DNA from: a virus
Virus record (IMG/VR): IMGVR_UViG_3300006162_000001
Length of the DNA stretch: 57,026 nucleotides
Reading direction: 5' to 3' (one strand)
Shown: positions 3,340 to 31,679 of the stretch, in pieces
Layout of the letters: every line of letters begins with the position of its first letter
Position numbering within the stretch: the stretch's first letter is position 1
Program-made: the position numbers and the translations under genes
The notes under the pieces: model-generated
What the model saw: the letters and a program-made list of their open reading frames with translations, nothing else
Databases searched by the model: none
What the model was told of the DNA's origin: nothing

Positions 3340-3344
3340 TTTCA

Positions 3345-10570: not shown

Positions 10571-10582
10571 GATGTTTGTTTT

Positions 10583-11290: not shown

Positions 11291-11296
11291 GTTTGT

Positions 11297-11983: not shown

Positions 11984-11987
11984 TTAA

Positions 11988-14900: not shown

Positions 14901-16175
14901 GCCCAAAGCCATGCTGGTGGTCCCAGCTGACAGGCTACCAGCGGCGGCACCACCCACGGAAGCCGTGACAGTAGATCCGTTCAATCCGAAAGAAACGCCA
15001 TTCGAATTACTGAAGATGATGTTCGAAAGATTCTGGCTGGTAGTTCCGGCGCTGAAGTTTATGTTCGTCAGTGACGTGGCTATGCTGGCGGTGATCGTAG
15101 ATCCGTTTAATCCAAAGCTTACGCCATTGGAATTCGAATAAACCCATTTAGAAAGATTCTGGGAAGTTGTTCCCGCTGACAGGTTAATATTCGAAAGGGT
15201 GACAGCATTGGAAGCCATCGCTGTCGTCAGGTAGTTCCCGGCACTTTGAAGGGCTGTGGTGATATTTGACGCCAGCCCCCAGGTGATCGTGGATCCATTG
15301 GATGATGATGACAGGCTGGATCCGGTGGCGAAACTCATAGCCCCGGTACTTCCATTTATGCTATTGACGACCTGGTTACTTTGCGCCGCTGTGGTCAGGT
15401 AATTCGTCTGGACAGAAGCCGTCATCGTCTGGCCGTTCATCCCGAAGGACACGCCATTGGAATTGGACCAGACTACTGTCCCGGAAGTGGCCTGGGCGGC
15501 ACCAGCGCTGATCCCGCTGATCCCCGTCTGGGCGGCACCGGCATTGACGGAAGCATAAATACTTCCATTGGAATTACTGAAGGAAACGCCGTTCGTATTG
15601 ACAAAATTCAACGTCTGGAAGGCGGATGATCCACCCTGGGCGCTGAATGCCTGGTTACTTTGTGAACTAAGGAACGCCGGGAAGTTCAGGGACAGTCCGC
15701 TGGAATTGGCGGTGACGGATACGCCGTTCGCCGTCAGGGCGGTATTGGTCCCCATGAAATTACTTCCGGCATTGGAAGCCATGGCGGTCGTTAGATAGTT
15801 AGTCTGCACGGAAGCGGTCATCGTGGATCCATTCATCCCGAAGCTGACCCCATTGGAATTACTGAAGACGATCGCCGATAAATTCTGGCTGGTCGTCCCA
15901 CCGGAAACATTGATATTGGAAAGGGTGACAGCATTGGAAAGCATCGCTGTCGTTAGATAGTTCCCCTGGCTTTGGTAGTTTGTGAAGACGCTGGCGGTGA
16001 CGGTGGATCCGACATTCCCGAAGGTCACGCCGTTCGCATTGGAAAAATACCAGTTAGATCCGGCCGGACCTTGCTGTCCAATACCATTGGACACATAAAT
16101 GTTATACGCCATCGCCGGGATCAGGATATCCGTGGTCAGGTTATTATAGACTATTTCGATATTGACTTCCCCCAT
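11988..16175 (-). CDS. Giant tandem-repeat fibre-like protein (1395 aa), N/S/T/G-rich and nearly uncharged, with a non-repetitive C-terminal domain
   Basis: Dozens of about 25-30-aa units of the form AGTTSQNLSxxVFSNSNGVSFGLNGSTVTAS. A distinct C-terminal domain of about 230 aa starts near ...LSRWDGMEDAF. Confidence 0.8.
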   Translation of the reverse strand: MGEVNIEIVYNNLTTDILIPAMAYNIYVSNGIGQQGPAGSNWYFSNANGVTFGNVGSTVTASVFTNYQSQGNYLTTAMLSNAVTLSNINVSGGTTSQNLSAIVFSNSNGVSFGMNGSTMTASVQTNYLTTAMASNAGSNFMGTNTALTANGVSVTANSSGLSLNFPAFLSSQSNQAFSAQGGSSAFQTLNFVNTNGVSFSNSNGSIYASVNAGAAQTGISGISAGAAQATSGTVVWSNSNGVSFGMNGQTMTASVQTNYLTTAAQSNQVVNSINGSTGAMSFATGSSLSSSSNGSTITWGLASNITTALQSAGNYLTTAMASNAVTLSNINLSAGTTSQNLSKWVYSNSNGVSFGLNGSTITASIATSLTNINFSAGTTSQNLSNIIFSNSNGVSFGLNGSTVTASVGGAAAGSLSAGTTSMALGQVVFSNSNSISFGLNISTVTASFSQSNQNISLYALGNTTQNSSTVLNASNLSYNGLGAATLGFSNGSIQVSVPVQSAQTQSNIQAIYDGANSISTGTIRFTNANNVSFSINGNTISASIATSLTNINFSAGTTSQNLSNIVFSNSNNVSFGLNGSTVTGSIATSLTAVNLSAGTTSNNLSAFVFSNSNGVSFGLNGSTVTASVGGAAAGSLSAGTTTMALGQVVFSNSNGVSFGLNGSTVTATVQTNYLTTAMQSNAVTISNINLSAGTTSLNASAFTFANSNGLAFGLSGNSVLTGSYTVPTQSNQNISFYALGNTTQNSSSVIGAAAVSLNAIGSLTIGYSNGSIQFSAPNALTTAMLSNAVTLSNINLSAGTTSSNLSAFVFSNSNSISFGLNGGTVTATVSYPAQSAQTQSNIQAVYDGANSISTGTIRFTNANGVSFSINGQTVSASVAAQSNQNISLYALGNTTQNSSTVLNASNLSFNGVGNITVGFSNGSIQISQTGGGGGVVLYDGANSISTGTARFTNANGVSFTINGQTISGSVNQSVSLYALGNTTQNSSTNLANSVLSLNAIGSLTIGYSNGSIQFSAPNALTTAMQSGSQSQLWIMGNSSATIGGTNISGTVYSNGMSLSVAAPGGGGAINVSAGTTSNNLQTVVFSNSNNVSFGLNGSTITGSIPAQSNQTVGMYALGNTTQNSSSTFDARTLSYNFLGAMTGGYSNGSIQISAPNTSSISATGGLSVVQNGSTLSMGFPAPATLSRWDGMEDAFVSLNTIGQGSLSIQQVYIPYNVTATAALIAGSLSAQTNTSATTGSINLSLWMGVYTLNGSTLSLASSGSALNAFTVQHTGSTSNNTVIQGMRALTLPMNVNITPGVYYIGVVISSASTYTGAAYTVFGNNAINSAASGGFFAPIGSATSVNMGGAYLFQGIYTAATSAGPASMSNGNINMTSASNAQRANLHVQFYSNTF
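12700..16060 (-). repeat. Intragenic tandem and higher-order coding repeats of the 1395-aa protein (approximate bounds)
   Basis: Long segments recur nearly verbatim, e.g. SIATSLTNINFSAGTTSQNLSNI, VGGAAAGSLSAGTT.MALGQVVFSNSN, QSNQNISLYALGNTTQNSSTVLNASNLS, SAQTQSNIQA.YDGANSISTGTIRFTNAN and LNAIGSLTIGYSNGSIQFSAPNALTTAM, each at least twice. Confidence 0.8.
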
Positions 16176-16594: not shown

Positions 16595-18118
16595 TCACAA
16601 AGTGACTTTCGGCAACCTACTAACCGTGGACAGCCCACCCGGGGCCAGGCGGTTGTGGCGGTTCACAAAAAGGGAATATTCATCCGGGAAAGCCTGGTAA
16701 ATGAAGTCTTTCAGCGTATCGGTTAAGTGACCGTTATGTTCATAAGACGGGCCGCCTTCATAATCCGCCTTACGGATCTTCAGGATCCCGCCATCTTTAT
16801 CGGTCTTCGCTTCCAGGTAGTCGTTAATCGACTGCTTACAGGACCGGCTGATATGGATCCTGGCGAAAGTCAATTCCTGGGTGAAGATGGCATTACAGAA
16901 TTCACCCATCGACCGGACTGGCGGGGCGTAGGGATGGATCCTGTCCACCGTCCTGAAGCCGGCCAGGATCAGCGTTTCATCGATGATCTGGAAAAAGCTT
17001 CTTTTCGCGTCATCGATATTGTTCCGGGACTTCGTGGACCGGTCGCCATACCAGAAGACGGTTCCGACATATCCGATCGACTTCAGCCAGTTGACGATCT
17101 TCCTTCCGGCCGCTGAAGCGGTATTTTCCGGATCCGAAGCGGGAAGTTCATGGATCTGGTTCACGTCCCAGATCGTCTGGTTATTTTCGAATTTCTTTTC
17201 CAGCTGCCAGCATGTTATGGCGATATGTGGATAAACATTCGAATCCATGGAAATATGGATCGTGGTGGCCGGATTATAGGGAAGGATCCGGGAAGCATGT
17301 GTCTTTTCATTGAAGCCGCGAAGGAATTCCCCGCCTGTCTTCCTTCGGGCCCACAGTCCCAGGCAATAAACCCGGTAAGAATATTCCGACACTTTGGCCA
17401 GTCCTTCGTAGTAGGCTTTCCGTTCCGGTGGACAGTATCGGTTATCGTAAAAAGTGCTGTGGGTGGCCCGGTATGTCAGTTCGGCGATCGTGCCATCGTT
17501 TAAGACTTCGGTGATCTTCCTGGTGAAATTTAGATCCTGGATGGGGTTTCCGTTTTCTTCACAGAAATAGCGCTTATAAAGCCAGAAGTCTTCGTAAGCC
17601 TGGCCGCCGGGGATATCAGGATTGAAGGAATAATCGATCTGGACTTTTTGCCGGTTAGACCGAAGGGATGTGGTGATGATCGTCCAGTCTTCTTCTTCAA
17701 TGTCGGATCCTTCTTCGATCCAGGCATCCGTGGGATCCGTCAGTGACTTGATCTTTTTGGGGTCATCCAGACCACGGCCCAGGAAGACGCCGCCAGATAT
17801 ACACCTTATTTCCAGGGGATGGGTGGTGAAGATGAAAAGCCCGGAAATCTTCCATTCTTCCACGATCGACCTAATAAGCGCCCACTGCGAATCTTTCACT
17901 GTATTCGCAACCTTCCTGATCAGGGCACATTTGAAGTGCCTGTTCGATAAACACTTCAGTATCTTCCGCTGTGCTATATCCCGGCTCTTTCCGCTGTCCC
18001 TGGACCCATAAAGAAATTCTATATCGTAAGTATGATCCAATAGGTGGCGGTAAACGGGAAGGGAAGCTTCCGGGTCGTAGTCCACCGATATTTTTTTCCG
18101 GTAAACCCTGGTTTCCAT
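16595..18118 (-). CDS. terL: Terminase large subunit
   Basis: 507 aa. Walker A FLYGSRDSGKSRD, C-terminal nuclease-like half, preceded by a small-terminase-like ORF. Confidence 0.9.
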   Translation of the reverse strand: METRVYRKKISVDYDPEASLPVYRHLLDHTYDIEFLYGSRDSGKSRDIAQRKILKCLSNRHFKCALIRKVANTVKDSQWALIRSIVEEWKISGLFIFTTHPLEIRCISGGVFLGRGLDDPKKIKSLTDPTDAWIEEGSDIEEEDWTIITTSLRSNRQKVQIDYSFNPDIPGGQAYEDFWLYKRYFCEENGNPIQDLNFTRKITEVLNDGTIAELTYRATHSTFYDNRYCPPERKAYYEGLAKVSEYSYRVYCLGLWARRKTGGEFLRGFNEKTHASRILPYNPATTIHISMDSNVYPHIAITCWQLEKKFENNQTIWDVNQIHELPASDPENTASAAGRKIVNWLKSIGYVGTVFWYGDRSTKSRNNIDDAKRSFFQIIDETLILAGFRTVDRIHPYAPPVRSMGEFCNAIFTQELTFARIHISRSCKQSINDYLEAKTDKDGGILKIRKADYEGGPSYEHNGHLTDTLKDFIYQAFPDEYSLFVNRHNRLAPGGLSTVSRLPKVTL

Positions 18119-18462: not shown

Positions 18463-18511
18463 TTCACCTATATTTTTTCAATTCATTTTTTGCCCTAAAA
18501 CTCTAATAAAT

Positions 18512-18546
18512 GTACGTTTTATTCTAATAAACGTACCAAAATTAAG
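18512..18546. promoter_or_regulatory. Repeat cluster upstream of the terminase operon: TCTAATAAA x2 (21 bp apart) and the inverted repeat GTACGTTT / AAACGTAC
   Basis: TCTAATAAA at 18512-18520 and 18533-18541. Inverted repeat arms at 18522-18529 and 18539-18546. Confidence 0.4.
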
Positions 18547-18560
18547 CGATTTCGTACAAA

Positions 18561-18588
18561 AAAGCCATCCGGCAAAAGATGGCTTTTT
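18561..18588 (-). terminator. Intrinsic terminator (symmetric A/T flanks)
   Basis: GCCATC (18564-18569) / GATGGC (18578-18583), flanked by A-run and T-run. Confidence 0.6.
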
Positions 18589-18632
18589 ACTCTAACAGGT
18601 GACCGCGGGTTCCCTTCGCGGAATAAAGATAC

Positions 18633-18658
18633 AAAAGGCCCGGATAGAAATCCAGGCC
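18633..18658 (-). terminator. Intrinsic terminator after the 87-aa gene
   Basis: Minus strand GGCCTGGA-tttcta-TCCGGGCC (one mismatch) followed by TTTTGTATCTTTATT, about 33 nt after the stop at 18692. Confidence 0.6.
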
Positions 18659-18691
18659 GATAATTGATTAAATATTGACTACATGAAAGAC

Positions 18692-18955
18692 TTATGGCGT
18701 TCCTGGACGTGGAACTTTGGTGAACACCAGATAGTATTCTTCGCCGGGAACGAATTCCGTGAAGGCGGTCGTGGCTTCATCCACGGTAATTTCCAGTGTT
18801 CCAGCCGGGGTCAACTTTGCATAGTCGGCATTTTCACCGTCTTTTCCGTAAATGGCGGTGAAGTTGAACCTTTTGCTTTTCGACATTTGGCTGTGGGAAG
18901 CCGGGAATTCCATTACTGTCGCATAATTGCACTTGAATTTTGCACGTACTGACAT
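18692..18955 (-). CDS. Conserved-looking small hypothetical protein, its own transcription unit
   Basis: 87-aa ORF with ATG start, bracketed by hairpin terminators on both sides (19011-19033 upstream, 18633-18658 downstream). Confidence 0.65.
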   Translation of the reverse strand: MSVRAKFKCNYATVMEFPASHSQMSKSKRFNFTAIYGKDGENADYAKLTPAGTLEITVDEATTAFTEFVPGEEYYLVFTKVPRPGTP

Positions 18956-19010
18956 TTTAATGAATTGATCGGGTTAATTATTTAGCCACTTTTCTTTGTA
19001 AAGGTAAGAA

Positions 19011-19033
19011 AGCCGGGGAAATAGGCCCCGGCT
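19011..19033 (-). terminator. Intrinsic terminator after the peptidase gene
   Basis: AGCCGGGG / CCCCGGCT 8-bp stem with 7-nt loop. The minus strand is followed by TTTCTTACCTTT. Confidence 0.6.
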
Positions 19034-19072
19034 GGGTTCGTAAGTAAAAGGTCTGCCTGTTTTTTACTTCGT

Positions 19073-19852
19073 TTATAATAGGGCCAGATCAGCCTGAAGT
19101 TGCGCCATATCGAAGCCGCTGGGGGCCACGATCGGGTTTGTCTTGCGGTTGCCATTGGAAGCGAACCATTCCGGATCCAGGATCACGTAAGCTTCTTCCA
19201 CGTAGGCGTCCCAGAACCTGTTCGTCATCTTCATCTTTTCCCCCCAGGTGATGGCGAAGGTCACGTCCTGACCGTAAGCGGTAAGGATCACGCAATGGCC
19301 ACCCCAGGAAGCGGGTGTTGAATCCCCCGTCAGGGATGGATCCACCACGTCCCACATTTCGGTCTGGTTCTGGGCTGTCAGCGGCATGTTTATCCCCAGG
19401 TAAATGGATCCGAAAAGATAGATGGCGATCTTCATCTGGACCAGGTTCTTCACGTTCAGGGCCATAAAGGGGCCTATTTTTCGGCCGGCGATACCCACCT
19501 TCTGAAGATAGTTCAGCACATCCAGACAGGCGGCACCGTTATCGTTCGCCCCCGTGACGGGATCATATCCGGATACGGCACGATAAGCCACCAGGATATC
19601 AGCGTCAGAAGGGATGAACAGTTCCCCGTTCATATTGGTCCAGTTGACGATCTGGTGACCGGCGGCGGCACATGTACAGTCGCCGATCTTATCATTTAGC
19701 ATCATCCCCCAGTTTTTGAAAAACCAGGAATAAGAATGGTCTTTCGGGATGGGTGGCAATTCACCCGTTTTCAGGTACTTAGCGAACATCAGCGTTTTAT
19801 CGCTTACGATGGCTGGCTTACGGCCCAGCTTCACACTTTTGGGATCGAACAT
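19073..19852 (-). CDS. Putative papain-like cysteine peptidase
   Basis: Candidate catalytic Cys in NDKIGDCTCAAAGHQIV and His in SWGGHCVILTAY. Eye-level similarity only. Confidence 0.45.
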   Translation of the reverse strand: MFDPKSVKLGRKPAIVSDKTLMFAKYLKTGELPPIPKDHSYSWFFKNWGMMLNDKIGDCTCAAAGHQIVNWTNMNGELFIPSDADILVAYRAVSGYDPVTGANDNGAACLDVLNYLQKVGIAGRKIGPFMALNVKNLVQMKIAIYLFGSIYLGINMPLTAQNQTEMWDVVDPSLTGDSTPASWGGHCVILTAYGQDVTFAITWGEKMKMTNRFWDAYVEEAYVILDPEWFASNGNRKTNPIVAPSGFDMAQLQADLALL

Positions 19853-19885
19853 ATTAATAGTTTTTAGTTTGTGATATCAATTTAG

Positions 19886-20959
19886 TTACATGCTTAAATC
19901 GTCTTCGTTCCTGACGTGGAAATATTGGCGGCACTGGTCACGCAAAAGCCGCATTCTTTCCGATCCGTCATCGTGAAGGATGATGACCCCCTGGGTGGAA
20001 TATTTCACGTCCGTCAGGGGATTATACCAGTTATCCTTCAGGATCACTTCCCGCTTCCCGTACCGGCGGTCTTTGAAGCTTCCATGGAAATAATGGACGG
20101 CCGTCTGTTCCATGACGCCCATATTCTTCCGCCACGCCTTCAGGGCTATATCTTGCCAGTTAAGAAGCTGGCGGCGGAATTCAGCCCCGTATTCCGGCGG
20201 GATGGCCTGTTCCATGAATCCGATGATCCCGGCCGCCTGATACCAGTCAGCGCTTCCCAGGATACAGAAATCGATGTTCCCACCCACTTCTTCCAGTTCC
20301 TTACGCCGGTAAGCCCAGGCCCCGCCGGGTGGTCCCCAGTCATCGCTGGCTTTACCCCCTTCGTTCTGGTATTGCTGGTCACGGTAAGCCAGATCCACAG
20401 CTGGAAGGAAAGCCCGGGGCTTTTCAAATATTTTGTTGCTGATCTTTTTGCCATGGGAACTGAAATCCAGGCCGTGAAGCCACCGGGACGCGAAAGACAT
20501 TCTGGTGTTTATCACCTGGCCGTAGGGGCCCAGATAGGTCACCTGGTTAAACATTTGAATGACCGGATAGTGCTGAAGCTTATGAAGACAGTTATCCACC
20601 CAGTTCGGATCCAGGAAGTGGAAGTCAGCGTCAGAAAAACAAACATATTCCCAGTCTGGCGGAAGGTATTGCATCCCCAGGTTCATGGCGTTTTCCTTTG
20701 TCCAGATTTCTGAACTGGTCCGGCGCTGGACGATGATGTGATTTTCATTATAGGGTTCTTTGATCACGAATTCCCGTTCCCCGAAGGCGTATTCCACCGT
20801 CACCAGGACAGCCCCGGAATCGATCACATGCTTTTCGAAGGCGAAGTAAGTGTTCCACCTGGACAAAAAGCGGACCTGGTTTATGATGGCGGTGATGACG
20901 TAAAGCTTTTTGTTTATTTTGTCAGGCTTCTGAAAGGGAATCCGGGTCTGAATGGACAT
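19886..20959 (-). CDS. Putative glycosyltransferase (GT-A / GT2-like)
   Basis: 357 aa. N-terminal Rossmann-like YVITAIINQ..., DxD-like CFSDADFHF. Confidence 0.5.
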   Translation of the reverse strand: MSIQTRIPFQKPDKINKKLYVITAIINQVRFLSRWNTYFAFEKHVIDSGAVLVTVEYAFGEREFVIKEPYNENHIIVQRRTSSEIWTKENAMNLGMQYLPPDWEYVCFSDADFHFLDPNWVDNCLHKLQHYPVIQMFNQVTYLGPYGQVINTRMSFASRWLHGLDFSSHGKKISNKIFEKPRAFLPAVDLAYRDQQYQNEGGKASDDWGPPGGAWAYRRKELEEVGGNIDFCILGSADWYQAAGIIGFMEQAIPPEYGAEFRRQLLNWQDIALKAWRKNMGVMEQTAVHYFHGSFKDRRYGKREVILKDNWYNPLTDVKYSTQGVIILHDDGSERMRLLRDQCRQYFHVRNEDDLSM

Positions 20960-21028
20960 AAGAAATATTGAAAAATGGTGGGAATTAGGTTAAAATTAGA
21001 AGTTTTATTTGAACAGATTTCGAATTGA

Positions 21029-21439
21029 TTAGATTATTTTTTTGTGATGGCGTGGCTTTTTATGCTTTCCATCATCGAAAGTCGGATGGGCTTCGATATA
21101 GTCATTACATGGCGGACAGCACCCTTCCATCTTTTCCACGTCCAGGACCACATCCAGACCCCTTCCTTCCGTGTGATTGACGACCGTAGATATCCTGGTA
21201 CAGACCGGCGACTGGATCTTACAGAAGGGATCCCGCTTCAGGACAAAGGGATAACAGACTTTTTTCAGCTGTTTATTGATTTCCTTCCGCTTTTCGCCGC
21301 GAATATTGATCTTTTTCTTCTTTTTTGCCGCTTTTTTTGATTTTTTATCCTTTTCCCGCTTCAGGTCTTCCGGGGGCTTCCCGCCGATCGGTGCCAGACC
21401 TTTGATGGCCCGGATCCGGTTTACTGCATTAATGTCCAT
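21029..21439 (-). CDS. Basic protein with a C-terminal Cys-rich HNH/NinG-like zinc-finger region (tentative)
   Basis: KDKKSKKAAKKKKKINIRGEKRK..., then CKIQSPVC...VVNHTEGRG...GCCPPCNDYI. Confidence 0.35.
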   Translation of the reverse strand: MDINAVNRIRAIKGLAPIGGKPPEDLKREKDKKSKKAAKKKKKINIRGEKRKEINKQLKKVCYPFVLKRDPFCKIQSPVCTRISTVVNHTEGRGLDVVLDVEKMEGCCPPCNDYIEAHPTFDDGKHKKPRHHKKII

Positions 21440-21698
21440 TTTTAAGGATTTTGGTGATCGTTAGGGTGGAATCGCTGTCGTTATAAATAACCATGTATTC
21501 CGGATCCAGGGGCGTGAAGGTGATCGAATCGCCATGCTGGATAAGCTTCAGGACGATCCCTGGTGGCTTCCCGGTATCCAAAAAGTGCATATCACCAAAG
21601 TCACCGTATCCCCGGGCGGGTTTCTTTTTATATTGACAGTATAGATCGGTGGTTAATCCGATGGTCAGGATGATGAAAAAAAATAGCGCTAATCTCAT
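21429..21698 (-). CDS. Small secreted or membrane-anchored hypothetical protein
   Basis: N-terminal MRLALFFFIILTIGLTTDLYC is a hydrophobic signal-like segment. Confidence 0.5.
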   Translation of the reverse strand: MRLALFFFIILTIGLTTDLYCQYKKKPARGYGDFGDMHFLDTGKPPGIVLKLIQHGDSITFTPLDPEYMVIYNDSDSTLTITKILKNGH

Positions 21699-21789
21699 AA
21701 ATTTAAGTTTAAGGTTCTGGTGATTAAAATAGCTGTATTCCCCTGAATAAGAACGGCAATGATCATTTCTGTTGAACCGGTGGCGTTTA

Positions 21790-22257
21790 TCATCGTGGAA
21801 CTGATTTAGGTTTTAGCTTTATTCGCCAAAGGGCGACTATTTGATTATAATTTCTTTCCCTGAAAGTATCCGGGATATTATAAAAAAGCGGTGTCCCGTG
21901 AAGGTTAATCTGTAAGACTATCGGGAAACCATAATATCTTCCAGGTTCTATCCGCATGATCGCTTTTTTAAGTGCTTTATCCCAAGCATCTAAATCTCCC
22001 CAAGTTTCAAAATCGTTATTATCTTCTGCGGCAATTAGTTCCTCTAACGCTTTCCTCAATTCCCCTTCTCCTGTCTGGGGTTGTTGGCTTTGCCATTGGA
22101 TGCCATACTTTACGCCACCTACAAAATCATTTACAACAACGCGGGCTTTTCTGCCACGTTTCTTTTCTGATTCAGCATGTGCTTCAAGTGCATCATTGAT
22201 TTCGCTGATAGGAGGTAACGCTTCCCTTGCTTCCGGGGATGAATGTTTGTCTGTCAT
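21790..22257 (-). CDS. Hypothetical protein
   Basis: 155-aa ORF with ATG start, 3 nt after the GT2 gene stop. Confidence 0.6.
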   Translation of the reverse strand: MTDKHSSPEAREALPPISEINDALEAHAESEKKRGRKARVVVNDFVGGVKYGIQWQSQQPQTGEGELRKALEELIAAEDNNDFETWGDLDAWDKALKKAIMRIEPGRYYGFPIVLQINLHGTPLFYNIPDTFRERNYNQIVALWRIKLKPKSVPR

Positions 22258-22260
22258 GGG

Positions 22261-22857
22261 TTAATCGATATTTCCCGGATCGATCCGGCTTGTTGGTGAA
22301 GTCATGATATGATAAGTCGGGAAATTTTTGCTTTTTTTATATTTCGCCCCACATAACATCATGTTATGGATCAATTCGAAATCGTGGCCATATTCCGGAA
22401 GTCTTTCTGGCATCTGCTTTAAGAATTCCGTCCGGATGATCACGGCATTATCCCCGATATATCCCCACTTCAGCTTGTAATTCTTCCTTTCCCCCAGGAC
22501 AAAGGAATCGAAGTACACAAAGTCCAGATCCGTCCCTTCGATCGCTGACAGGTAGTTTTCGATGTGGTGTAGTTCGACCAGGTCATCATTAGCCAGGAAC
22601 ATGAAATAAGTGCCGGTGGCGGCCTGGATGGACAGGTTCGTGATCTGGTATCCCCAGAATCCGCCATTCTTCCGCTGGTTCCAGGCTAAGATCCGGGGAT
22701 CCTTCAGAAGTTCGGCATGGCGGTCGAAGTAGGGACAGTTATCCCCCACGATGAAAGCTTCCCAGTCCTTTTCCGTCTGGTTCAGAAGACAGCGGATCAT
22801 TCGCTGGGTCCGTTCCGGGCGAAGGTAAACAGGCATTGAAAGGGTGACTTTTGGCAT
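22261..22857 (-). CDS. Family 2 glycosyltransferase (short, soluble)
   Basis: VTLSMPVYLRPERTQRMIRCLLNQTEKDWEAFIVGDNCP and FMFLANDD are typical GT2 N-terminal and DxD motifs. Confidence 0.75.
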   Translation of the reverse strand: MPKVTLSMPVYLRPERTQRMIRCLLNQTEKDWEAFIVGDNCPYFDRHAELLKDPRILAWNQRKNGGFWGYQITNLSIQAATGTYFMFLANDDLVELHHIENYLSAIEGTDLDFVYFDSFVLGERKNYKLKWGYIGDNAVIIRTEFLKQMPERLPEYGHDFELIHNMMLCGAKYKKSKNFPTYHIMTSPTSRIDPGNID

Positions 22858-23106
22858 TTATTCGTCTTTGGTAAACTGAATGTAAGCGATGGAAATAAGT
22901 ACCAGGAACAGGCCGCCGATCATCAGCACATAAACCCACCAGGGATAAGCGACCGCGGCCCCGCCATCCGGATAGACTTCGAAGTCACCCACCCCCAGCG
23001 CCATGGCGATCTGGCCCGTGATGATCATCAGGACCCCGGCGATTCCAGCCCACTGGAACGCCTTAAAAACAATATACTTTTCGGCAAGGGATTCATCTAT
23101 TTTCAT
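22858..23106 (-). CDS. Small membrane protein (2 TM)
   Basis: Hydrophobic segments WAGIAGVLMIITGQIAMALGV and WWVYVLMIGGLFLVLISIAYI. Abuts the GT2 start. Confidence 0.6.
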   Translation of the reverse strand: MKIDESLAEKYIVFKAFQWAGIAGVLMIITGQIAMALGVGDFEVYPDGGAAVAYPWWVYVLMIGGLFLVLISIAYIQFTKDE

Positions 23107-23660
23107 AAGCTTTCCCGCATGTTTATGGTGTAAGTTTCGTAATTCGGGTGCTTCTTATTGGCACCCAGTTCCCTGGCCGGATTCCCCACGTAAACCTTAT
23201 AAGGTTCGGTGACCAGCTTTTTGGTGACGATGGCACCCATCCCGATCATGACGCCGGTGGCGACCCTTTGCTTTTGGTGGATGATGGCCCCCAGGCCGAT
23301 GTTCGCGTCACCTTCCACGACCGTGTGGCCGCCGATGATAGCATGACAGGAAAGGGTCACCAGGTCCCCGATCCGGGCATCATGGCCGATATGGACACCC
23401 TTCATGATATAGCATTCATTTTCGATCCAGGTCATCCCGTCAGCGCCGGAATCGATCGTGACGTGGCCGGTGATCACATTATTCCAGCCGATCTTTACAT
23501 TCCCGAACTGGCGATCCCTTCCACGCCATTCGGCCGGTGCCCCGATAATACAGAAGGGCCCGATCCGGTTGCCTTCGCCGATCACCACGCCTGGATAGAT
23601 CACGGCCGTTTCATGAATGTCGTTTCCCGGATACCGGTCATTATTGCTTAATGTCGTCAT
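23103..23660 (-). CDS. LpxA-like left-handed beta-helix (hexapeptide) acyltransferase lacking the LpxA C-terminal helical domain
   Basis: IHETAVIYPGVVIGEGNRIGPFCIIGAPAE and VHIGHDARIGDLVTLSCHAIIGGHTVVEGDANIGLGAIIHQ parallel E. coli LpxA [26 protein letters not shown] and AHIAHDCTVGN. 185 aa, compared with about 260 for LpxA. Confidence 0.7.
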   Translation of the reverse strand: MTTLSNNDRYPGNDIHETAVIYPGVVIGEGNRIGPFCIIGAPAEWRGRDRQFGNVKIGWNNVITGHVTIDSGADGMTWIENECYIMKGVHIGHDARIGDLVTLSCHAIIGGHTVVEGDANIGLGAIIHQKQRVATGVMIGMGAIVTKKLVTEPYKVYVGNPARELGANKKHPNYETYTINMRESL

Positions 23661-23835
23661 GTCTTTGGTATTTTAGTCGAATTAAAGTGTCCTGTCTGTC
23701 TTGTTTCTCATTTTCATCATCATTCACGAAATATCCGGCGATCACCACGGCGGACAGAATGATGGGGGATAGGGCGATCGCGATCATCCCCAGAAGGGTG
23801 TAAAAGATCCAGTATTTAACAGTCTTCTTTTTCAT
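23641..23835 (-). CDS. Small membrane protein (1-2 TM)
   Basis: YWIFYTLLGMIAIALSPIILSAVVIAGYF. Overlaps the acyltransferase start by 20 nt. Confidence 0.55.
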   Translation of the reverse strand: MKKKTVKYWIFYTLLGMIAIALSPIILSAVVIAGYFVNDDENEKQDRQDTLIRLKYQRHDDIKQ

Positions 23836-23959
23836 TGGGATGATCTTTTAAAAATTTCCTACATTTTTTTGCCGTGGCGTTGTCCCGGTGGAATTCTTTA
23901 ATCACAAAGCGGATACCCATCAGGATTAAAAAAGCCCATATCGTGATGGCGATTTCCAT
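23816..23959 (-). CDS. Small membrane protein (47 aa, below the ORF-track cutoff)
   Basis: MEIAITIWAFLILMGIRFVIKEFHRDNATAKKCRKFLKDHPNEKEDC*. The ATG overlaps the upstream stop (TGATG). Confidence 0.45.
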   Translation of the reverse strand: MEIAITIWAFLILMGIRFVIKEFHRDNATAKKCRKFLKDHPNEKEDC

Positions 23960-24381
23960 CAGTGGGTGGCCCAGATCAGATATCGGAAGGGCTTCTTTTT
24001 TTCATCCAGGATACACACATCCCCGATCATGTAAGATTTATATCCCTTCGGCCATGACCTGACCTGGTATCCATGGACCCAGTAAGCATGTTCGTCCCGG
24101 GCCCAGGAAAACTTATCGAAAGTCACCGATGTGGTATCGGAACAAAGGATCAGGATCGGGACGGTATCGAATTCGATCTGTTCCGTGGAAAGAAAGCCTA
24201 TCGTGTCCAGGGTGGCCACAGATCTACTGGTTTTTATATGCTTTTTCGGGTGCCAGTTAGGGCCGTTCCCATTGATCCCCGTCAGCTGGGCGTGGACCGT
24301 ATTGACGTAGATCAGGCATCCGGCGACCATGACCAGCCAAAGGAAGATCATCAGGAAAATGTGAGTTTTTGATATTTTCAT
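23959..24381 (-). CDS. N-terminally anchored hypothetical protein
   Basis: 140 aa. TM/signal segment THIFLMIFLWLVMVAGCLIYV. Confidence 0.6.
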   Translation of the reverse strand: MKISKTHIFLMIFLWLVMVAGCLIYVNTVHAQLTGINGNGPNWHPKKHIKTSRSVATLDTIGFLSTEQIEFDTVPILILCSDTTSVTFDKFSWARDEHAYWVHGYQVRSWPKGYKSYMIGDVCILDEKKKPFRYLIWATH

Positions 24382-24602
24382 TCTGTTTGTTTTTTACATA
24401 AGTTTTTCCAGTATTCTTCGGCCTGGTGTTCAGTACCAAAGCCATAAGTGGCACATCCTTCCTGAAAAGCGCCGATAATTTCAGGCTTCAATCCTTCCAT
24501 GATTTCACCGGCCATAATCAGGCCGCTTTCTGTATTGAACGCCCATTTGATGACGATCTTCTGGATCCATTCGGGAATTTCATCCCAGGCCGGTGTCTTC
24601 AT
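24378..24602 (-). CDS. Hypothetical protein
   Basis: 74-aa ORF with 4-nt overlap downstream. Confidence 0.55.
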   Translation of the reverse strand: MKTPAWDEIPEWIQKIVIKWAFNTESGLIMAGEIMEGLKPEIIGAFQEGCATYGFGTEHQAEEYWKNLCKKQTE

Positions 24603-24603
24603 G

Positions 24604-24738
24604 TCAATAGCTTTGTCTGGCTGGCCCCTTCACGATTTTCCACTTCTGTGGATAACAGACCGAAGTCGTTTTATTGGGAAGGGTCATACAGGATGATAAA
24701 AAAAGGATGATGGCGCAAATTGTGTATATCTTTTTCAT
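24604..24738 (-). CDS. Small putative lipoprotein (44 aa, internal start of track ORF 24604..24816)
   Basis: MKKIYTICAIILFLSSC has a lipobox-like LSSC. The ATG at 24738 lies 2 nt after the upstream stop (24741). Confidence 0.5.
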   Translation of the reverse strand: MKKIYTICAIILFLSSCMTLPNKTTSVCYPQKWKIVKGPARQSY

Positions 24739-24740
24739 AT

Positions 24741-24974
24741 TCAAGTTTTTACAAGGTATCCCGTTCGTTCTTCTTCGTTCGGGCGAAGGTTGTGCTGGGA
24801 AGCCCGTCCTTCCCACCAGGCAAATTTGAAGATTTCCTGGATCGTGAAGCTGGGATTCACTGTCCCCGCTTTGATCTTAGCGTAAGCCCGGCGATAAACC
24901 GGCGTATTGGCGAATTCTTTAAAGCTGTCATCCATCAGGTTTTCTGGATAAATCCGCTTCGTCCGTTCACACAT
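24741..24974 (-). CDS. Hypothetical protein
   Basis: 77-aa ORF with ATG start overlapping the upstream gene by 8 nt. Confidence 0.55.
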   Translation of the reverse strand: MCERTKRIYPENLMDDSFKEFANTPVYRRAYAKIKAGTVNPSFTIQEIFKFAWWEGRASQHNLRPNEEERTGYLVKT

Positions 24975-25203
24975 GTTTGTTTATTTTAGATTCGTGAATA
25001 ATGACGTATTCGATTTTCGTGGTCCCTTCATAGTCCTGGATTATTGGCTGGATCTGTTCCTGGACTGTTTTCAGGCAATTCTGGACTTCCAGGTCCCGGG
25101 CCTTGGCTTTGTCTTCCCACCAGGTAAATCGCTTCGTGTCGGCCTTAAGGGCCACCTTCCAGATGAATTTCAGTTCATTGTCCACCCAGCATTCGATTCT
25201 CAT
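24967..25203 (-). CDS. Hypothetical protein
   Basis: 78-aa ORF with ATGA-type coupling to the upstream gene. Confidence 0.55.
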   Translation of the reverse strand: MRIECWVDNELKFIWKVALKADTKRFTWWEDKAKARDLEVQNCLKTVQEQIQPIIQDYEGTTKIEYVIIHESKINKHV

Positions 25204-25604
25204 TTTTCCAGGGGTTTATTTGTTTTAGACCATTCTTCGAATCCTATCAGTCTGGCCATGCCGTTATGGTCCTGATAGCAGACCCAGGCTTCCCCGCCAC
25301 AGTCATGACAGTCCTGAAGGCGGTCCCACTGGGCCCGTTTCATCCGGTCGCCCTTCTTCTTCACTTCGCAAAGGACTGGAAGACAATAGGATTCCACCGA
25401 ACGGATATTGCAAGTGTATCCCTGAATATCCGGCCATCCCGGCTGGACCTGTCCCCGGTGGCCCTTCCTGGCGGGGATATTGTTCACCCGGCGGACACGC
25501 CACTTCCAGATCCGGAACATTTCCAGGGCGTAGGCGGTAAGATCCGAAGCCGTCAGATCCGGCTTCTTCCATTCGCTTTCCAGAAGGTTAGGCTGATAAG
25601 TCAT
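25200..25604 (-). CDS. VRR-NUC domain nuclease (putative)
   Basis: GWPDIQGY...LCEVKKKGDRMKRAQWDRLQDCHDCGGEAWV fits the PD-(D/E)xK VRR-NUC pattern (G.PD ... E.K ... Q). Confidence 0.55.
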   Translation of the reverse strand: MTYQPNLLESEWKKPDLTASDLTAYALEMFRIWKWRVRRVNNIPARKGHRGQVQPGWPDIQGYTCNIRSVESYCLPVLCEVKKKGDRMKRAQWDRLQDCHDCGGEAWVCYQDHNGMARLIGFEEWSKTNKPLEK

Positions 25605-25873
25605 GGTTCAAAAAGTTTTTCATCGTTTATCAATTTGCCTTCGGGTGTGAACATTCTGGCATTAACCACAGCCAATCCACGGGTGTTCAGCTGTCTGTCA
25701 GCTTCGGCGTGCATGGCTTTGTCAATAACCTTCCACCTTTCCCCATCCAGAATTCGGTCACTCAACAAAAGAACTGTGGTAGGATTGTCATAGTTATCCC
25801 TTATCTGGATAATCGCCATTTTAAGGTTATGAATGGCGTGATGAAGACTTTCCACTAATTCATCGTGGGTCAT
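25601..25873 (-). CDS. Hypothetical protein (start moved to first ATG)
   Basis: The track start 25894 is TTG and overlaps the upstream gene. The ATG at 25873 (MTHDELVESL...) lies 10 nt after the upstream stop. Confidence 0.5.
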   Translation of the reverse strand: MTHDELVESLHHAIHNLKMAIIQIRDNYDNPTTVLLLSDRILDGERWKVIDKAMHAEADRQLNTRGLAVVNARMFTPEGKLINDEKLFEP

Positions 25874-25883
25874 ATTTTTGTTT

Positions 25884-26654
25884 TTATGGTTCAACTTTTT
25901 CGTTTATACACTTGTCGAAATAGACAGAAACGGCATATTTCCGCCTTAAATTCCGGGCCAGGATGTTCACCTGGTCGTCAGTCATGTTTTTGATCATCCG
26001 GTAGTGTTCCGGATCCCCGGCTGACCGGGCCCGAAGGATGTGGTAAACATGTTCCTTTATCGTCACCTGGTCGGCGTCCGTCAGGACGATCTTCTGTTCC
26101 CGGGTCAGGTATTCGAAGACTTCCACCGGGATCAGGTCTATCTTCTTCATGTTCTGGTAAACAAAAAAGGCGATCTGGACCATTTCTTGGTCCGTGATGG
26201 GTTTAGCTGGCTTCGCTGGAAGTTTTGGCTGGTTTATCCTGGCTTCCAGATTAGATACTTCCATCCGGCGTTCCAGGTAGGGGATCATAATTTTATCGAT
26301 TAATCCCAGGTTCAAATTCGTCCCGTAAGCTTCCACGCTGGACGGCTGTTCCCGAAAGACGTATTCAATTTCTTCCACTGTGGTGTTCCCGTATGATTCC
26401 ACCATTTTCTTCTGGAACTGGTCCAGAAGAAGGATTAAATCATCCCCCGAAGGAAGACGCCATCCGGTGACCACATGGATAAGCTTTAAAAGCCGTGGCC
26501 CCCATTTAGAAATTTCCTTATCGTCCATCATGCCGATCTGCTTACTGGCATATTTCCGGTTTACGATCGCCATTTCTTCAATGGTCAGACTGGGCTGCAA
26601 TAATTTTAGATAATTCGCCTGATCCGGTGATTTTAACTGAAGTTGACTGTCCAT
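25884..26654 (-). CDS. Hypothetical protein (replication-module position), start uncertain
   Basis: The track start 26723 is TTG. The ATGs at 26654 (MDSQLQL) and 26573 (MAIVNRKY) are alternatives. It overlaps the 3' end of 26578..27324. Confidence 0.5.
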   Translation of the reverse strand: MDSQLQLKSPDQANYLKLLQPSLTIEEMAIVNRKYASKQIGMMDDKEISKWGPRLLKLIHVVTGWRLPSGDDLILLLDQFQKKMVESYGNTTVEEIEYVFREQPSSVEAYGTNLNLGLIDKIMIPYLERRMEVSNLEARINQPKLPAKPAKPITDQEMVQIAFFVYQNMKKIDLIPVEVFEYLTREQKIVLTDADQVTIKEHVYHILRARSAGDPEHYRMIKNMTDDQVNILARNLRRKYAVSVYFDKCINEKVEP

Positions 26655-27324
26655 TTTTAGAAAATTTTTCTTTGTTTCGTTTCCACCTTTCCAGGCGAAG
26701 ATTCGTTTCCCATGTTTTTTCAAGCTGGAATTTCATTTTCCCAGATGGCGTCTTTTCCCGCCAATAATCAAAAAATTCGCGCAAAAGAAGTTTTTCAAAA
26801 TTGCTTTGGAAGGTGACCAGTTCATTAAAAAATTCATCTTCAGACCAAAGCTTAAAGGATTTTTTTTCTGGGAATAATTCGGCGAACGCCGCTTCCTTCC
26901 CTTCCATTCCCTTCCTTTCCCTTCCCTTCCCTTCCCTTCCTGTCGTCCTTGGTGTTTCCGAAGTGTTTCCAGGTTGTTTCCGAAGTGTTTCCTTAGAAAC
27001 ACCAGGGAATTCGCTTTTTGTATCCGCTTCGCTTCCAGTGATTCTTTGGTGTTTCTCAAAGGTTGTTATCTGAATGATTTCCACGCCATTAACTTCATAC
27101 CTGGTAATAAATTCAGATTCATGAAGTGCCCATAAAAGCTGATCCACATCCACATTATCGTAAGGAAGAACTTGAACCTTTATCCTTTTTGGACGATCTT
27201 CCAGCCGTCCGTCACGATCCGCCAATGTCCAAAGACCAATAAAAAGAAGCCGGCAAAAAGGATCTAATTCTGCTAAATCTTCATTTTTAAAAAAATCCGG
27301 CTTGATTGTTCGTATCCTGGCCAT
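26578..27324 (-). CDS. Putative DNA-binding / replication-associated protein with an internal low-complexity linker
   Basis: The N-terminal MARIRTIKPDFFKNEDLAELDPFCRLLFIGLWTLADRDGRLEDRP is a conserved-looking prophage motif. The linker GREGKGRERKGMEGKE is encoded by a pentanucleotide repeat. Confidence 0.45.
   Translation of the reverse strand: MARIRTIKPDFFKNEDLAELDPFCRLLFIGLWTLADRDGRLEDRPKRIKVQVLPYDNVDVDQLLWALHESEFITRYEVNGVEIIQITTFEKHQRITGSEADTKSEFPGVSKETLRKQPGNTSETPRTTGREGKGRERKGMEGKEAAFAELFPEKKSFKLWSEDEFFNELVTFQSNFEKLLLREFFDYWREKTPSGKMKFQLEKTWETNLRLERWKRNKEKFSKNGQSTSVKITGSGELSKIIAAQSDH
26897..26941 (-). repeat. Pentanucleotide microsatellite (TTCCC)n on plus strand = (GGGAA)n on the coding strand, about 9 units with 4 perfect (26917-26936)
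   Basis: Read directly: ttccc ttcca ttccc ttcct ttccc ttccc ttccc ttccc ttcct. Confidence 0.85.
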
Positions 27325-29240: not shown

Positions 29241-29780
29241 TTATTGATTTGATTGTATTCTATTTCTGTATGAAAGAACACTTGCGCATTTTCTGGAACA
29301 AGTCGCATTTACATTTCTTGGTGGAATAAATTCAGCACCACAAACAACACACTTCCTGATTTCGCCCGTTTTGCAGAATTTCCTGGTTTTAAAATTATGA
29401 TTTTCCTTACCACTTCCGCTTGTTGGTTTTGCGTTCCCGTGCTTATATCCGTGAAGGATGTTTTCAGACTGGGTACACCATTCCAGATTTGAAATCGAAT
29501 TATCAGAAGGAATTGAATTTTTGTGATTAACAACGTTTTTACCCTTTATCATAGGGATAAAAGCTTCAGCGATCAATCTATGAATAAACACACTTTTCCC
29601 TTGAATTAATACAAAATAATACCCCTTATTGCTGACACAAATAGACAAAAACCGACTTCTTTGACGTAAAACCCTACCATTTTTTTGGGTAATATACCTA
29701 TCGATACTTCTTACCCCTCCCTGGTCAGATATTTCATAAAATCCACTAAAACCATTAATTTTTCTCCATTCTTCATTCAT
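29241..29780 (-). CDS. HNH homing endonuclease with N-terminal NUMOD4 motif
   Basis: WRKINGFSGFYEISDQGGVRS (NUMOD4) and VVNHKNSIPSDNSISNLEWCTQSENILH (HNH_3). Confidence 0.85.
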   Translation of the reverse strand: MNEEWRKINGFSGFYEISDQGGVRSIDRYITQKNGRVLRQRSRFLSICVSNKGYYFVLIQGKSVFIHRLIAEAFIPMIKGKNVVNHKNSIPSDNSISNLEWCTQSENILHGYKHGNAKPTSGSGKENHNFKTRKFCKTGEIRKCVVCGAEFIPPRNVNATCSRKCASVLSYRNRIQSNQ

Positions 29781-30226: not shown

Positions 30227-30862
30227 TTATCCGCCGTATGGTAAGTCAGACGGTTCAAATTTTTCGCCTTTTGCCGCTTTCGCAGCCGCCAGAAGCTTTT
30301 CTTCCGTGGCTTTGGAAACCTTCATGGCCATCTTTATCTTTTCCAGTGTCGTGGTCCCGGCGACCAGCTTCTTCACGGCCCCATCGAATTCTTTGGTCCC
30401 TGCATTCATCCATGGGATTTCGGCTTTTTGTGCCGCCGCCGGTCTGGGTGTCGGGGCCGCCTTCGTCACCGGCTGGGAAGCCGTTTCGGCGTCATCATCT
30501 TCGATGTTCAGTCCCAGGATGGCCGCCAAAGCATAGCGCCGCATGTACGTCAGGGCGCTTCCAGCCCCTTGCGGATCGTTTCTGGCCGGCGTCATGTTAT
30601 ATGTCGCCTGGATGAATTCGCCGCTGGTGTGCATCAGGATAGTCGTCAGGGCGTTTTCCCCGTCAGGGAACTGGACGAAAGACAGATCGCTTTCCCCCAG
30701 GGCGTCCGTGATGGCTTCCAGGATGGCGGACAGGGAAGCGTAGTTGTTCTTAAAATGGGGATTCTGGGAATCCTTTTTGATCACGTCCACCTTCACATGG
30801 AAGACCATAAGGGCCCGGCTGATATTGCCGATCGTGGGGGACTTTGTTAGATTAGGTTGCAT
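30227..30862 (-). CDS. erf: ERF-family single-strand annealing recombinase
   Basis: VIKKDSQNPHFKNNYASLSAILEAITDAL...DPQGAGSALTYMRRYALAAILGL are typical ERF motifs. Confidence 0.8.
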   Translation of the reverse strand: MQPNLTKSPTIGNISRALMVFHVKVDVIKKDSQNPHFKNNYASLSAILEAITDALGESDLSFVQFPDGENALTTILMHTSGEFIQATYNMTPARNDPQGAGSALTYMRRYALAAILGLNIEDDDAETASQPVTKAAPTPRPAAAQKAEIPWMNAGTKEFDGAVKKLVAGTTTLEKIKMAMKVSKATEEKLLAAAKAAKGEKFEPSDLPYGG

Positions 30863-31178: not shown

Positions 31179-31679
31179 TTAATAATCTGGGTGCATGTGC
31201 ATAAGAAGGTATCGGGTAGCATGTTCACTAAGATTATAGTCACGACCGATTTTCTTAAGCTTTTCTGATTTCGATCTTTTAAAAATCACATTAAGATCGT
31301 TCATTGATATTTTAATAAAATTTCTGACAGGCAAAGATTTATTTTCATTCTGTTCTTTTATAGTCGCCCATCTAAGATTTAAAATATTGTTATTCAATGG
31401 GTTTCTATCGATATGATCTATTGATATCCCGGGAATTTCTGGCTTGTCTTTACCGAAATGAGACATAACGATTTGATGGATCGGGAAATCCTTTTTACCA
31501 TGTACGTTTATTAATACAATATTACCAGCCGTCACAACCTTTTCGCCATTTTTTCTTTTCCGGGTTTTTATGTGAACGGCTAAAATTCTTCTGGTATGAT
31601 AATTCCGGATTCTTCCCGAATTGCTTATCTGATATTTTGGGAAGCCCTTAATGTTTAGCCAGATTTCCTTGTTTTTCAT
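31179..31679 (-). CDS. HNH homing endonuclease with N-terminal NUMOD4 motif
   Basis: WLNIKGFPKYQISNSGRIRN (NUMOD4) and IDHIDRNPLNNNILNLRWATIKEQNEN (HNH). Confidence 0.85.
   Translation of the reverse strand: MKNKEIWLNIKGFPKYQISNSGRIRNYHTRRILAVHIKTRKRKNGEKVVTAGNIVLINVHGKKDFPIHQIVMSHFGKDKPEIPGISIDHIDRNPLNNNILNLRWATIKEQNENKSLPVRNFIKISMNDLNVIFKRSKSEKLKKIGRDYNLSEHATRYLLMHMHPDY

Follow-up and report, generated by a model that had tools for sequence, protein, structure and literature searches.

A phage acetyltransferase-glycosyltransferase gene pair whose acetyltransferase most likely modifies an amino sugar rather than lipid A

Why does a tailed phage carry a gene that databases label as LpxA, an enzyme of lipid A synthesis, in tight linkage with a glycosyltransferase gene? 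We addressed this question in IMG/VR record IMGVR_UViG_3300006162_000001, a stretch of 57,026 nt that we call the window and whose whole-length numbering is used for all window positions below. Six open reading frames (ORFs) between 24381 and 22261 on its minus strand include the genes for a 185-aa acyltransferase and a 198-aa family 2 glycosyltransferase (GT2). A sequence-only reading of this DNA had described the six genes as a candidate cassette for cell-envelope modification, built around a truncated LpxA-like enzyme that could remodel lipid A, lipopolysaccharide (LPS) or another surface glycan. We find that the 185-aa protein is not LpxA and belongs to a related but distinct family of predicted nucleotide-sugar N-acetyltransferases, and that its pairing with a GT2 is conserved in related phages. 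The reading that we favour, with moderate confidence, is a two-enzyme module that tailors a sugar donor and then transfers the sugar during lytic growth of this ~57-kb tailed phage.

The acyltransferase gene (23103-23660, minus) encodes a short left-handed beta-helix (LbH) protein with a clear hexapeptide signature (Pfam Hexapep, 2.5e-14), as had been predicted. Its best NCBIfam model is LpxA (NF003657), but the score of 99.2 bits falls far below the equivalog cut-off of 226. A second LpxA model, TIGR01852, gives 95 bits against a cut-off of 231, and a NeuD/PglB/VioB model follows at the near level of 90 bits. In the PDB, the closest sequence is 8E62 (Pcryo_0615, a 189-aa chain), which matches residues 14-170 at E 1.2e-44; true LpxAs are the next best matches, at 1e-17 or weaker. 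The AlphaFold2 (AF2) model of the 185-aa protein (predicted local distance difference test score, pLDDT, 96) superposes on 8E62 in Foldseek with a template modelling score of 0.85, a root-mean-square deviation of 2.3 and 46-48% identity. Over all comparisons, identity is 46-51% to Pcryo_0615 and 22-31% to true LpxAs. The title of PDB entry 8E62, from which we take the activity of Pcryo_0615, describes an N-acetyltransferase needed for a diacetamido sugar. According to that title and to the reference in PMC10622841 (Hofmeister et al., Protein Sci 2023, as cited there), the protein comes from Psychrobacter cryohalolentis K5T and belongs to the pathway for uridine diphosphate (UDP)-2,3-diacetamido-2,3-dideoxy-D-glucuronic acid. 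It is the one characterised representative of the family.

To place the window protein relative to LpxA, we built a neighbour-joining tree with 200 bootstraps. Five LpxAs (from E. coli, Acinetobacter, Pseudomonas, a gut bacterium and Burkholderia) are monophyletic in 196 of 200 replicates, with the window protein outside. In 116 of 200, the window protein falls together with Pcryo_0615, for which a partial sequence was used, and with proteins of other phages and of Chitinophaga prophages; WbbJ, WcaF and WcaB are far outgroups. This placement comes near to refuting the LpxA assignment of the sequence-only reading; yet the clade is LpxA-related rather than of the WbbJ type, and LpxA, a member of the same beta-helix superfamily, is the closest large enzyme clade.

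The residue pattern points the same way. The earlier alignment of VHIGHD with AHIAHD of E. coli LpxA is correct, and the catalytic His125 corresponds to H93 of the window protein. LpxA H144, H160, Q161 and N198 are likewise kept as H112, H128, Q129 and N168; all five positions are invariant or nearly so across 46 family members, and Pcryo_0615 shares H93, H112, H128-Q129 and N168. LpxA K76, H99, G173 and H191 are not conserved, with G47, M141 and P161 standing at the positions of K76, G173 and H191, and R204/R205 have no counterpart and fall within a C-terminal domain that is missing here. We take these LpxA residues to be the acyl-chain ruler and the contacts to UDP (or to acyl carrier protein, ACP), so the ruler that the sequence-only reading suggested looking for has no conserved equivalent.

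The missing C-terminal domain had been noted from sequence, and the model agrees: it ends in a hairpin and one short helix (residues 174-183), without the ~70-aa helical domain of LpxA, and the LpxA alignment ends near LpxA residue 198. About two further coils (roughly 36 aa) are absent relative to LpxA in either alignment register. The register itself is ambiguous, as may be expected of a repeat protein: BLASTP pairs IGPFCIIG with IGPFCIVG of LpxA and then leaves ~33 gapped residues, and the NCBIfam LpxA model and MAFFT set the window N-terminus on a later coil. The motif match proposed earlier thus holds, but its place in the beta-helix does not follow from it. Nor is the protein a truncated LpxA, since the short form is family-wide. 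It matches 511 clusters at E <= 1e-30 among 50%-identity representatives, short relatives of 160-200 aa account for 244 matches in a 90%-identity collection, and Pcryo_0615 itself has 189 aa, with a beta-helix and a short C-terminal cap in place of the LpxA helical domain.

Genomic context separates the family from LpxA as well. The homologue adjoins both a DegT aminotransferase and a GFO/IDH/MocA oxidoreductase gene in at least 13 bacterial loci, which belong to Actinomycetota, Melainabacteria, Chloroflexi and, with weaker oxidoreductase matches, Saprospiraceae; additional bacterial loci have a DegT or a GFO gene alone within the fetched stretch. The cellular loci (L091-L122; L followed by a number denotes a locus) are exemplified by L092, 5737-8639, where an Acyl_transf_3 gene and a methyltransferase gene lie nearby. 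A DegT aminotransferase, a GFO-type oxidoreductase and an acetyltransferase form the classic set for making a 3-amino and then a 3-acetamido sugar. To our knowledge, Actinomycetota make no lipid A.

Taken together, these results speak against the model in which the phage enzyme is an LpxA-like O-acyltransferase that remodels lipid A or its precursors, and we consider that model very improbable. It draws on the top rank of LpxA among NCBIfam models, on the conserved catalytic His with three more LpxA active-site positions, and on the LpxA structures that come next after 8E62 in the PDB. Opposed to these are a score less than half of the cut-off, the low identity, the position outside the LpxA clade, the absent C-terminal domain, the lack of conservation at the presumed ruler residues and UDP-binding arginines, and the occurrence of cellular homologues in actinobacterial amino-sugar loci. 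No lpxC, lpxD or fabZ gene accompanies the phage gene, and the nearest relative of known activity N-acetylates a nucleotide sugar. The label 'UDP-N-acetylglucosamine acyltransferase' that databases give to these proteins is therefore a misleading transfer.

If the enzyme is not LpxA, with what does it work in phages? An IMG/VR scan returned at least 549 acetyltransferase relatives; the neighbourhood counts given here come from the best 80 loci, which are not phylogenetically independent. In close relatives (62-73% identity), the acetyltransferase, a small ORF of 62-71 aa and a GT2 of 188-199 aa stand together, mostly with 4-nt overlaps, and this trio is found in every relative with enough sequence (L001/L002, L129, L130/L131 and L132). 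Across the 77 IMG/VR loci with enough downstream sequence, the GT2 starts no more than 120 nt from the acetyltransferase stop codon in 66 and lies within 3 kb of the acetyltransferase in 76. The functional link that had been proposed between hexapeptide acyltransferase and GT2 is supported by this pairing: the module enzymes are translationally coupled and co-inherited across many phage lineages. A gene for a GT4-like glycosyltransferase (GT) of the GT-B fold, assigned by Pfam, is present in 59 of the 80 loci, and a large terminase gene follows at a distance of at most 4 kb in 44 of 46, in keeping with a lytic or late role. In the common form of the module, a ParB-N6/N4 methyltransferase and a terminase gene come directly after it. 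S-adenosylmethionine (SAM)-dependent methyltransferases occur inside some modules (L006), and one is encoded near the portal gene in the window.

Two further kinds of protein recur around the IMG/VR modules, each encoded two to four genes upstream of the acetyltransferase: a ~81-aa, mostly two-TM (transmembrane) protein with a conserved FKPFNCHPC motif, near the GT-B gene in 37 of 80 loci (L004-L083), and a ~173-aa protein in 42 of 80 that looks sigma-factor-like by eye. Mobile elements were seen in two relatives, a reverse transcriptase gene (RVT_1; L130, 3234-4184) between module and small terminase gene and an inserted IS1595-family transposase gene (L002, 13303-14313).

The module also occurs in prophages of cultured Chitinophaga, among them C. 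varians KACC 19415 (L085), C. cymbidii KCTC 23738 (L096) and Chitinophaga sp. sic0106 (L088). In L084 and L085 it stands between the terminase genes and an SPP1-type portal gene, and in L088 it immediately precedes the terminase gene. Among GenBank phages, blastn with the 5.2-kb region gave no match, and tblastn with the acetyltransferase returned ordinary lpxA on bacterial or unverified 'phage' records only, at no more than 31% identity. A structure search of UniProt viral proteins (BFVD) gave distant LbH subfamilies only. With no close acetyltransferase homologue found in GenBank phages or UniProt viral proteins, the earlier view that this gene composition is new among characterised phage systems stands.

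The remaining genes of the chain fare less well. All six ORFs are present on the minus strand as described: a 140-aa protein (23959-24381) with an N-terminal hydrophobic segment at residues 8-26, which could be a signal peptide or an anchor; hydrophobic products of 47 aa (23816-23959) and 64 aa (23641-23835); the acetyltransferase; an 82-aa protein with two predicted TM helices (22858-23106); and the GT2 (22261-22857). By Kyte-Doolittle hydropathy, the 82-aa product has two hydrophobic segments, and the 140-, 47- and 64-aa products have a single one apiece, in agreement with the membrane character assigned before. Every junction can be read in the sequence as an overlap or abutment of start and stop codons: 1 nt (TGATG) between the 140- and 47-aa genes, 20 nt on each side of the 64-aa gene, 4 nt (ATGA) between the acetyltransferase and 82-aa genes, and an exact abutment (TAAATG) before the GT2. 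The 47-, 64- and 82-aa ORFs are also called independently on a public contig of the same phage. In those calls, the 140-aa gene begins later, at residue 11 (130 aa), as does the GT2, at residue 8 (191 aa); we favour the longer GT2 start because homologues of 198 aa exist.

Linkage of this kind does not define a cassette. The chain continues beyond both ends that had been given for it, with a 74-aa ORF (24378-24602) that overlaps the 140-aa gene by 4 nt, more overlapping ORFs up to 26723, and a 155-aa ORF (21790-22257) 3 nt after the GT2. Over the whole window, 38 of 66 neighbouring minus-strand ORF pairs are spaced by 10 nt or less, and 24 of 66 overlap or abut. Tight packing is thus the genome-wide norm, and chaining indicates a phage operon rather than a functional unit. 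What distinguishes genes within it is conservation. Small ORFs at the position of the 82-aa gene in L001, L129, L130 and L132 have two hydrophobic segments each, and share G31, P46 and P55 as invariant residues besides the initiator Met; they diverge far more (19-26% identity) than the flanking enzymes (62-73%), and in L045 the two enzymes overlap directly with no small ORF between them. For the 47- and 64-aa ORFs, tblastn and blastp gave no counterpart in 83 loci or among the upstream ORFs of close relatives. The 140-aa protein, without a match in Pfam, NCBIfam or PHROG, is 34% identical over 82 aa to the product of a 145-aa ORF that lies two genes upstream of the L131 acetyltransferase gene, and L001 encodes a weak match (25%) some 2.5 kb downstream of its acetyltransferase gene; it is an accessory protein of phages whose gene keeps no fixed position relative to the module. 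Of the six-gene cassette, then, the acetyltransferase, the small two-TM ORF and the GT2 remain as the conserved core; the 140-aa gene lacks a syntenic counterpart too, and the 47- and 64-aa ORFs are neighbours outside that core.

Could the transferase reveal what the module modifies? The 198-aa protein matches PF00535 (Glycos_transf_2) at 1.1e-8, with 35.7 bits against a cut-off of 23.3, and its AF2 model (pLDDT 94.8) is a canonical GT-A domain. The best Foldseek matches are a small Leptospira glycosyltransferase (6P61), the fucosyltransferase WrtF, the teichoic-acid glycosyltransferases RmlT of Listeria and TarP and TarS of Staphylococcus, and SpsA; template modelling scores to GT-A enzymes are 0.78-0.81. 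Sequence matches include PglI and TarP. Across 74 homologues, D91-D92 of the LANDD motif, which is of the acidic DxD type, are near-invariant and H158-D159 invariant. A hydropathy scan found no TM segment in the GT2, and the sole GtrB signal is a weak PHROG match (E 0.0015). The protein resembles enzymes that decorate envelope polymers, and the same resemblance has been reported for phage GTs that act on DNA (bioRxiv 10.1101/2023.12.21.572611). Since both kinds of enzyme share its fold, the acceptor cannot be identified from fold alone.

The window GT2, which we call GT2B type, is also not the usual partner. The commonest partner in phage modules is another GT2 (GT2A), which matches PF00535 as well and has the LANDD/LANDI motif in the same place; phmmer finds nothing between the two, hhalign gives 40% probability, and we treat them as different GT2 subfamilies. 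More distant GT2B relatives are encoded beside an LbH protein and additional GTs, with small membrane ORFs in L138 and L139. In L138 (3048-10618) and L140 (813-10627), three to five glycosyltransferase genes accompany the LbH gene and are directly followed by genes for giant polyvalent proteins with ART-PolyVal, DarA_C and N6_Mtase domains.

A second transferase may lie close by. The 357-aa product of 19886-20959 (minus), encoded 1.3 kb downstream of and co-directional with the module, is a divergent GT-A enzyme. It has no Pfam match of its own and a weak profile match to ceramide glucosyltransferase; it belongs to a 31-member metagenomic family in which 11 of 24 sampled homologues match PF00535 (best 7.7e-7) and D110 and D112 are invariant. 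A GT-B fold was ruled out by hhalign. It is a possible second transferase of the module, as judged from these profile matches.

The acetyltransferase-GT2 pair is most naturally read as having a role in glycan chemistry, in which the sequence-only reading was right, and the following route is consistent with the data. First, a trimeric 185-aa enzyme would use acetyl-coenzyme A to acetylate the 3-amino (possibly the 3-hydroxyl) group of a sugar of the UDP-N-acetylglucosamine (UDP-GlcNAc) type, as suggested by its homology to Pcryo_0615, which carries out such a step in its own pathway. LpxA and Pcryo_0615-type enzymes both act at position 3 of such sugars. This step would exclude transfer of a long acyl chain from acyl-ACP and the synthesis of lipid A precursors. 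Second, the translationally coupled 198-aa GT-A enzyme would attach this or a similar sugar to an acceptor, in keeping with the gene coupling and the fold. The 357-aa GT-A protein may add another residue, as the GT-B enzyme may do in other phage lineages, and the 82-aa two-TM protein may anchor both enzymes at the inner membrane or be an unrelated passenger. Gene structure, family, fold, separation from LpxA and conservation of the module are shown by the data; substrate, acetyl donor, order of the steps and acceptor are what we infer in this scheme.

Several observations weigh against it. At 46-51% identity, the substrate may differ from that of Pcryo_0615, and N-acetyltransferase activity of the phage protein is a prediction. 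The clade that unites the two is supported by 116 of 200 bootstraps only, in a simple neighbour-joining tree, and the 80 IMG/VR loci are best matches whose phylogenetic dependence limits what their counts can carry. No aminotransferase or oxidoreductase gene for a 3-amino sugar is present in the window or in any phage locus, which implies either that the host supplies the 3-amino sugar or that the phage enzymes have shifted their substrate; Pcryo_0615 is a cellular O-antigen enzyme, and the phage gene is coupled to glycosyltransferases instead of DegT and GFO partners. The conserved two-TM ORF, together with the membrane ORFs of L138 and L139, fits a membrane-proximal acceptor better than virion proteins. 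Finally, a terminator-like hairpin at 18637-18658 (minus; nine pairs, six of them G-C, with a T-rich tail; a consensus match only) separates the module operon from the packaging genes. It lies within a 610-nt ORF-free gap (18463-19072), after a 259-aa ORF and before the packaging genes, no minus-strand terminator-like site was found inside 19073-25900, and the hairpin may close the transcription unit of the module. Late co-expression with the packaging genes is accordingly a supposition for the window phage.

With the two-step module kept as the preferred reading, the question of its acceptor remains, and here our confidence is lower. We tentatively place the phage's own virion proteins first, slightly favoured over a host envelope glycan; virion glycosylation was among the possibilities raised by the sequence-only reading. 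The soluble enzymes, the variable number of GTs, the SAM methyltransferases of some modules and the terminase-portal position in prophages all fit such an acceptor. There is also a precedent: the capsid and tail tube of cluster O mycobacteriophages are modified by tandem glycosyltransferases together with an O-methyltransferase (Freeman et al. 2023, as cited in PMC11600133). As far as that citation describes them, those cassettes resemble the module in combining several soluble GTs with a sugar-tailoring enzyme in tandem within a lytic-cycle operon; they differ in that tailoring is by a methyltransferase instead of an LbH acetyltransferase, in GT families and hosts, and in that the present system is known from its genes alone.

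An alternative that we regard as possible, if doubtful, is that the pair works on the host envelope, adding an acetamido sugar at the inner membrane to the LPS core or to an O-antigen or capsule unit carried on a lipid. The altered cell surface would then exclude superinfecting phages, mask the receptor (both proposed in the sequence-only reading) or keep progeny from re-adsorbing. This is where the membrane partners would find a use: the two-TM ORF is positionally conserved between both enzymes in the window lineage, and small membrane ORFs occur in other GT2B modules. The best matches of the GT2 (PglI, TarP, RmlT and SpsA) act on envelope polymers or on oligosaccharides linked to lipids, Pcryo_0615 as the closest characterised acetyltransferase serves to make an O-antigen sugar, and the module is found in prophages of cultured Chitinophaga. 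Other observations oppose this reading. The two-TM ORF is highly divergent (19-26%) and absent from L045, neither of the widespread partners, GT2A and GT-B, is predicted to have a TM segment, and no flippase, GT-C, Wzy-like or other protein with five or more TM segments is encoded beside the module; the sole multi-TM ORF in the window (33704-34348) lies next to the lysozyme gene. Position argues in the same direction. Known seroconversion genes sit at prophage ends, as the TarP, Gtr and Oac modifiers do, and the module is co-directional within lytic operons, beside terminase and portal genes.

Compared with these prophage modifiers, the module shares a GT-A enzyme structurally similar to TarP, which is itself prophage-encoded (bioRxiv 10.1101/2023.12.21.572611), and the combination with acetyltransferase activity. 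Unlike Gtr and Oac, it has no GtrA/GtrC-type membrane partners, and its acetyltransferase is a soluble LbH protein rather than a membrane Acyl_transf_3 protein. Two more specific versions were considered and rejected. Seroconversion of the Gtr type was discarded given a GT2 without TM segment, top folds other than GtrB or dolichol-phosphate mannose synthase (DPMS), and the lack of a suitable multi-TM ORF near the module. A split GtrB/DPM1-like enzyme made of the GT2 and a separate two-TM subunit was set aside likewise, as the top folds are not polyprenyl-phosphate GTs and GtrA/GtrC partners are missing.

The third named acceptor, phage DNA, is the least likely of the three and in our view improbable. 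Here the GT-A enzyme or enzymes would glycosylate a modified base before packaging and the acetyltransferase would tailor the sugar, as a defence against restriction. Phage GT-As whose top PDB match is TarP glycosylate 5-hydroxymethylcytosine with hexose, N-acetylhexosamine or heptose, and adjoin genes for ParB-like proteins, methyltransferases, terminases and sugar-modifying enzymes (bioRxiv 10.1101/2023.12.21.572611). The small GT-A of the module has this fold likeness, often comes with a second GT as in DNA hypermodification clusters, and in the common form of the module directly precedes a ParB-methyltransferase and a terminase gene; in L140, a C5 DNA methylase gene lies two genes upstream of the LbH gene. 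Known DNA glycosylation, however, needs a 5-methylpyrimidine dioxygenase (5mYOX) or a thymidylate-synthase (ThyS)-like hydroxymethylase, and a DNA target is held to be less likely for GTs whose contigs lack a neighbour of this kind (bioRxiv 10.1101/2023.12.21.572611). No dioxygenase or ThyS-like match was found with Pfam or PHROG among the window ORFs of at least 200 aa, several of which have no match at all and might include a very divergent enzyme, and no such gene is among the recurrent neighbour clusters. An acetyltransferase is not mentioned in the DNA-glycosylation literature that we examined, including bioRxiv 10.1101/2023.12.21.572611, and sets the module apart from the clusters described there. 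Beyond these three, some other acceptor altogether is an outcome that we would not find surprising, though we do not expect it.

Where does the module sit in the phage? Contigs as long as 57,214 bp carry the same proteins, and the window amounts to approximately a whole tailed-phage genome. The module occupies the distal end of a replication and accessory block, ~3 kb upstream of the gene for the large terminase (16595-18118). We also recognised genes for a replication initiator (26578-27324), an ERF recombinase (30227-30862), a lysozyme (32842-33330), a large tail fibre (36243-39878), a tape measure protein (48793-50460), a sheath-like protein (51470-52831) and a Mu-type portal (7705-9258). 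The host is probably a member of the Bacteroidota, as judged from the Chitinophaga prophage relatives alone; a Bacteroidota-type promoter pattern is not enriched in the window, and no tRNA genes were found in it. A sigma-70 promoter scan gave fewer sites than shuffled controls and is uninformative.

Other features of the genome were recorded in passing. A 436-aa MuF-zeta toxin fusion (6002-7312, minus) combines a head morphogenesis domain like that of phage Mu F with a zeta toxin domain. Toxins of the zeta type add phosphate to the 3'-OH of UDP-GlcNAc, a position on which enzymes of the LpxA clade also act. In relative L001, the MuF protein has 290 aa and no zeta toxin match on record, and toxin and module are not strictly linked. 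About 6.8 kb between the large terminase and portal genes (9797-16175, minus) hold a 1395-aa ORF without Pfam or PHROG match, two unannotatable ORFs (228 and 235 aa) and the SAM-dependent methyltransferase gene (9797-10570); L001 has a single 154-aa gene in this interval. Homing-endonuclease-like genes lie at 29241-29780, 31179-31679 and 2731-3345 (all minus), two with HNH_3 and NUMOD4 domains and one with GIY-YIG and NUMOD3.

Phage glycosyltransferases are known to alter host serotype, to shield virions from antibodies or to protect DNA from restriction, and which of these roles a cassette plays decides how the phage interacts with its hosts and their defences. The module described here is abundant in viral metagenomes, as its relatives in IMG/VR and its clusters at 50% identity indicate, and it places an enzyme family characterised only in cellular amino-sugar synthesis beside transferases, without the enzymes that make the amino sugar. 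Its routine mis-annotation as LpxA would falsely suggest lipid A genes in such phages. We see the module as an uncharacterised form of a known theme, phage-encoded glycan modification, with no sign of a categorically new mechanism. More speculatively, and with little confidence, the pair could be the core of an undescribed, widespread self-modification in which phages place an acetamido sugar on their own virions or DNA without the known base-hydroxylating enzymes; host O-antigen precursors of the UDP-GlcNAc3N(A) type, or lipid A precursors, might then be diverted to this use. The module-bearing prophages of cultured Chitinophaga make the question directly testable, and if self-modification proved true, the pair would represent a new class of it in phages.

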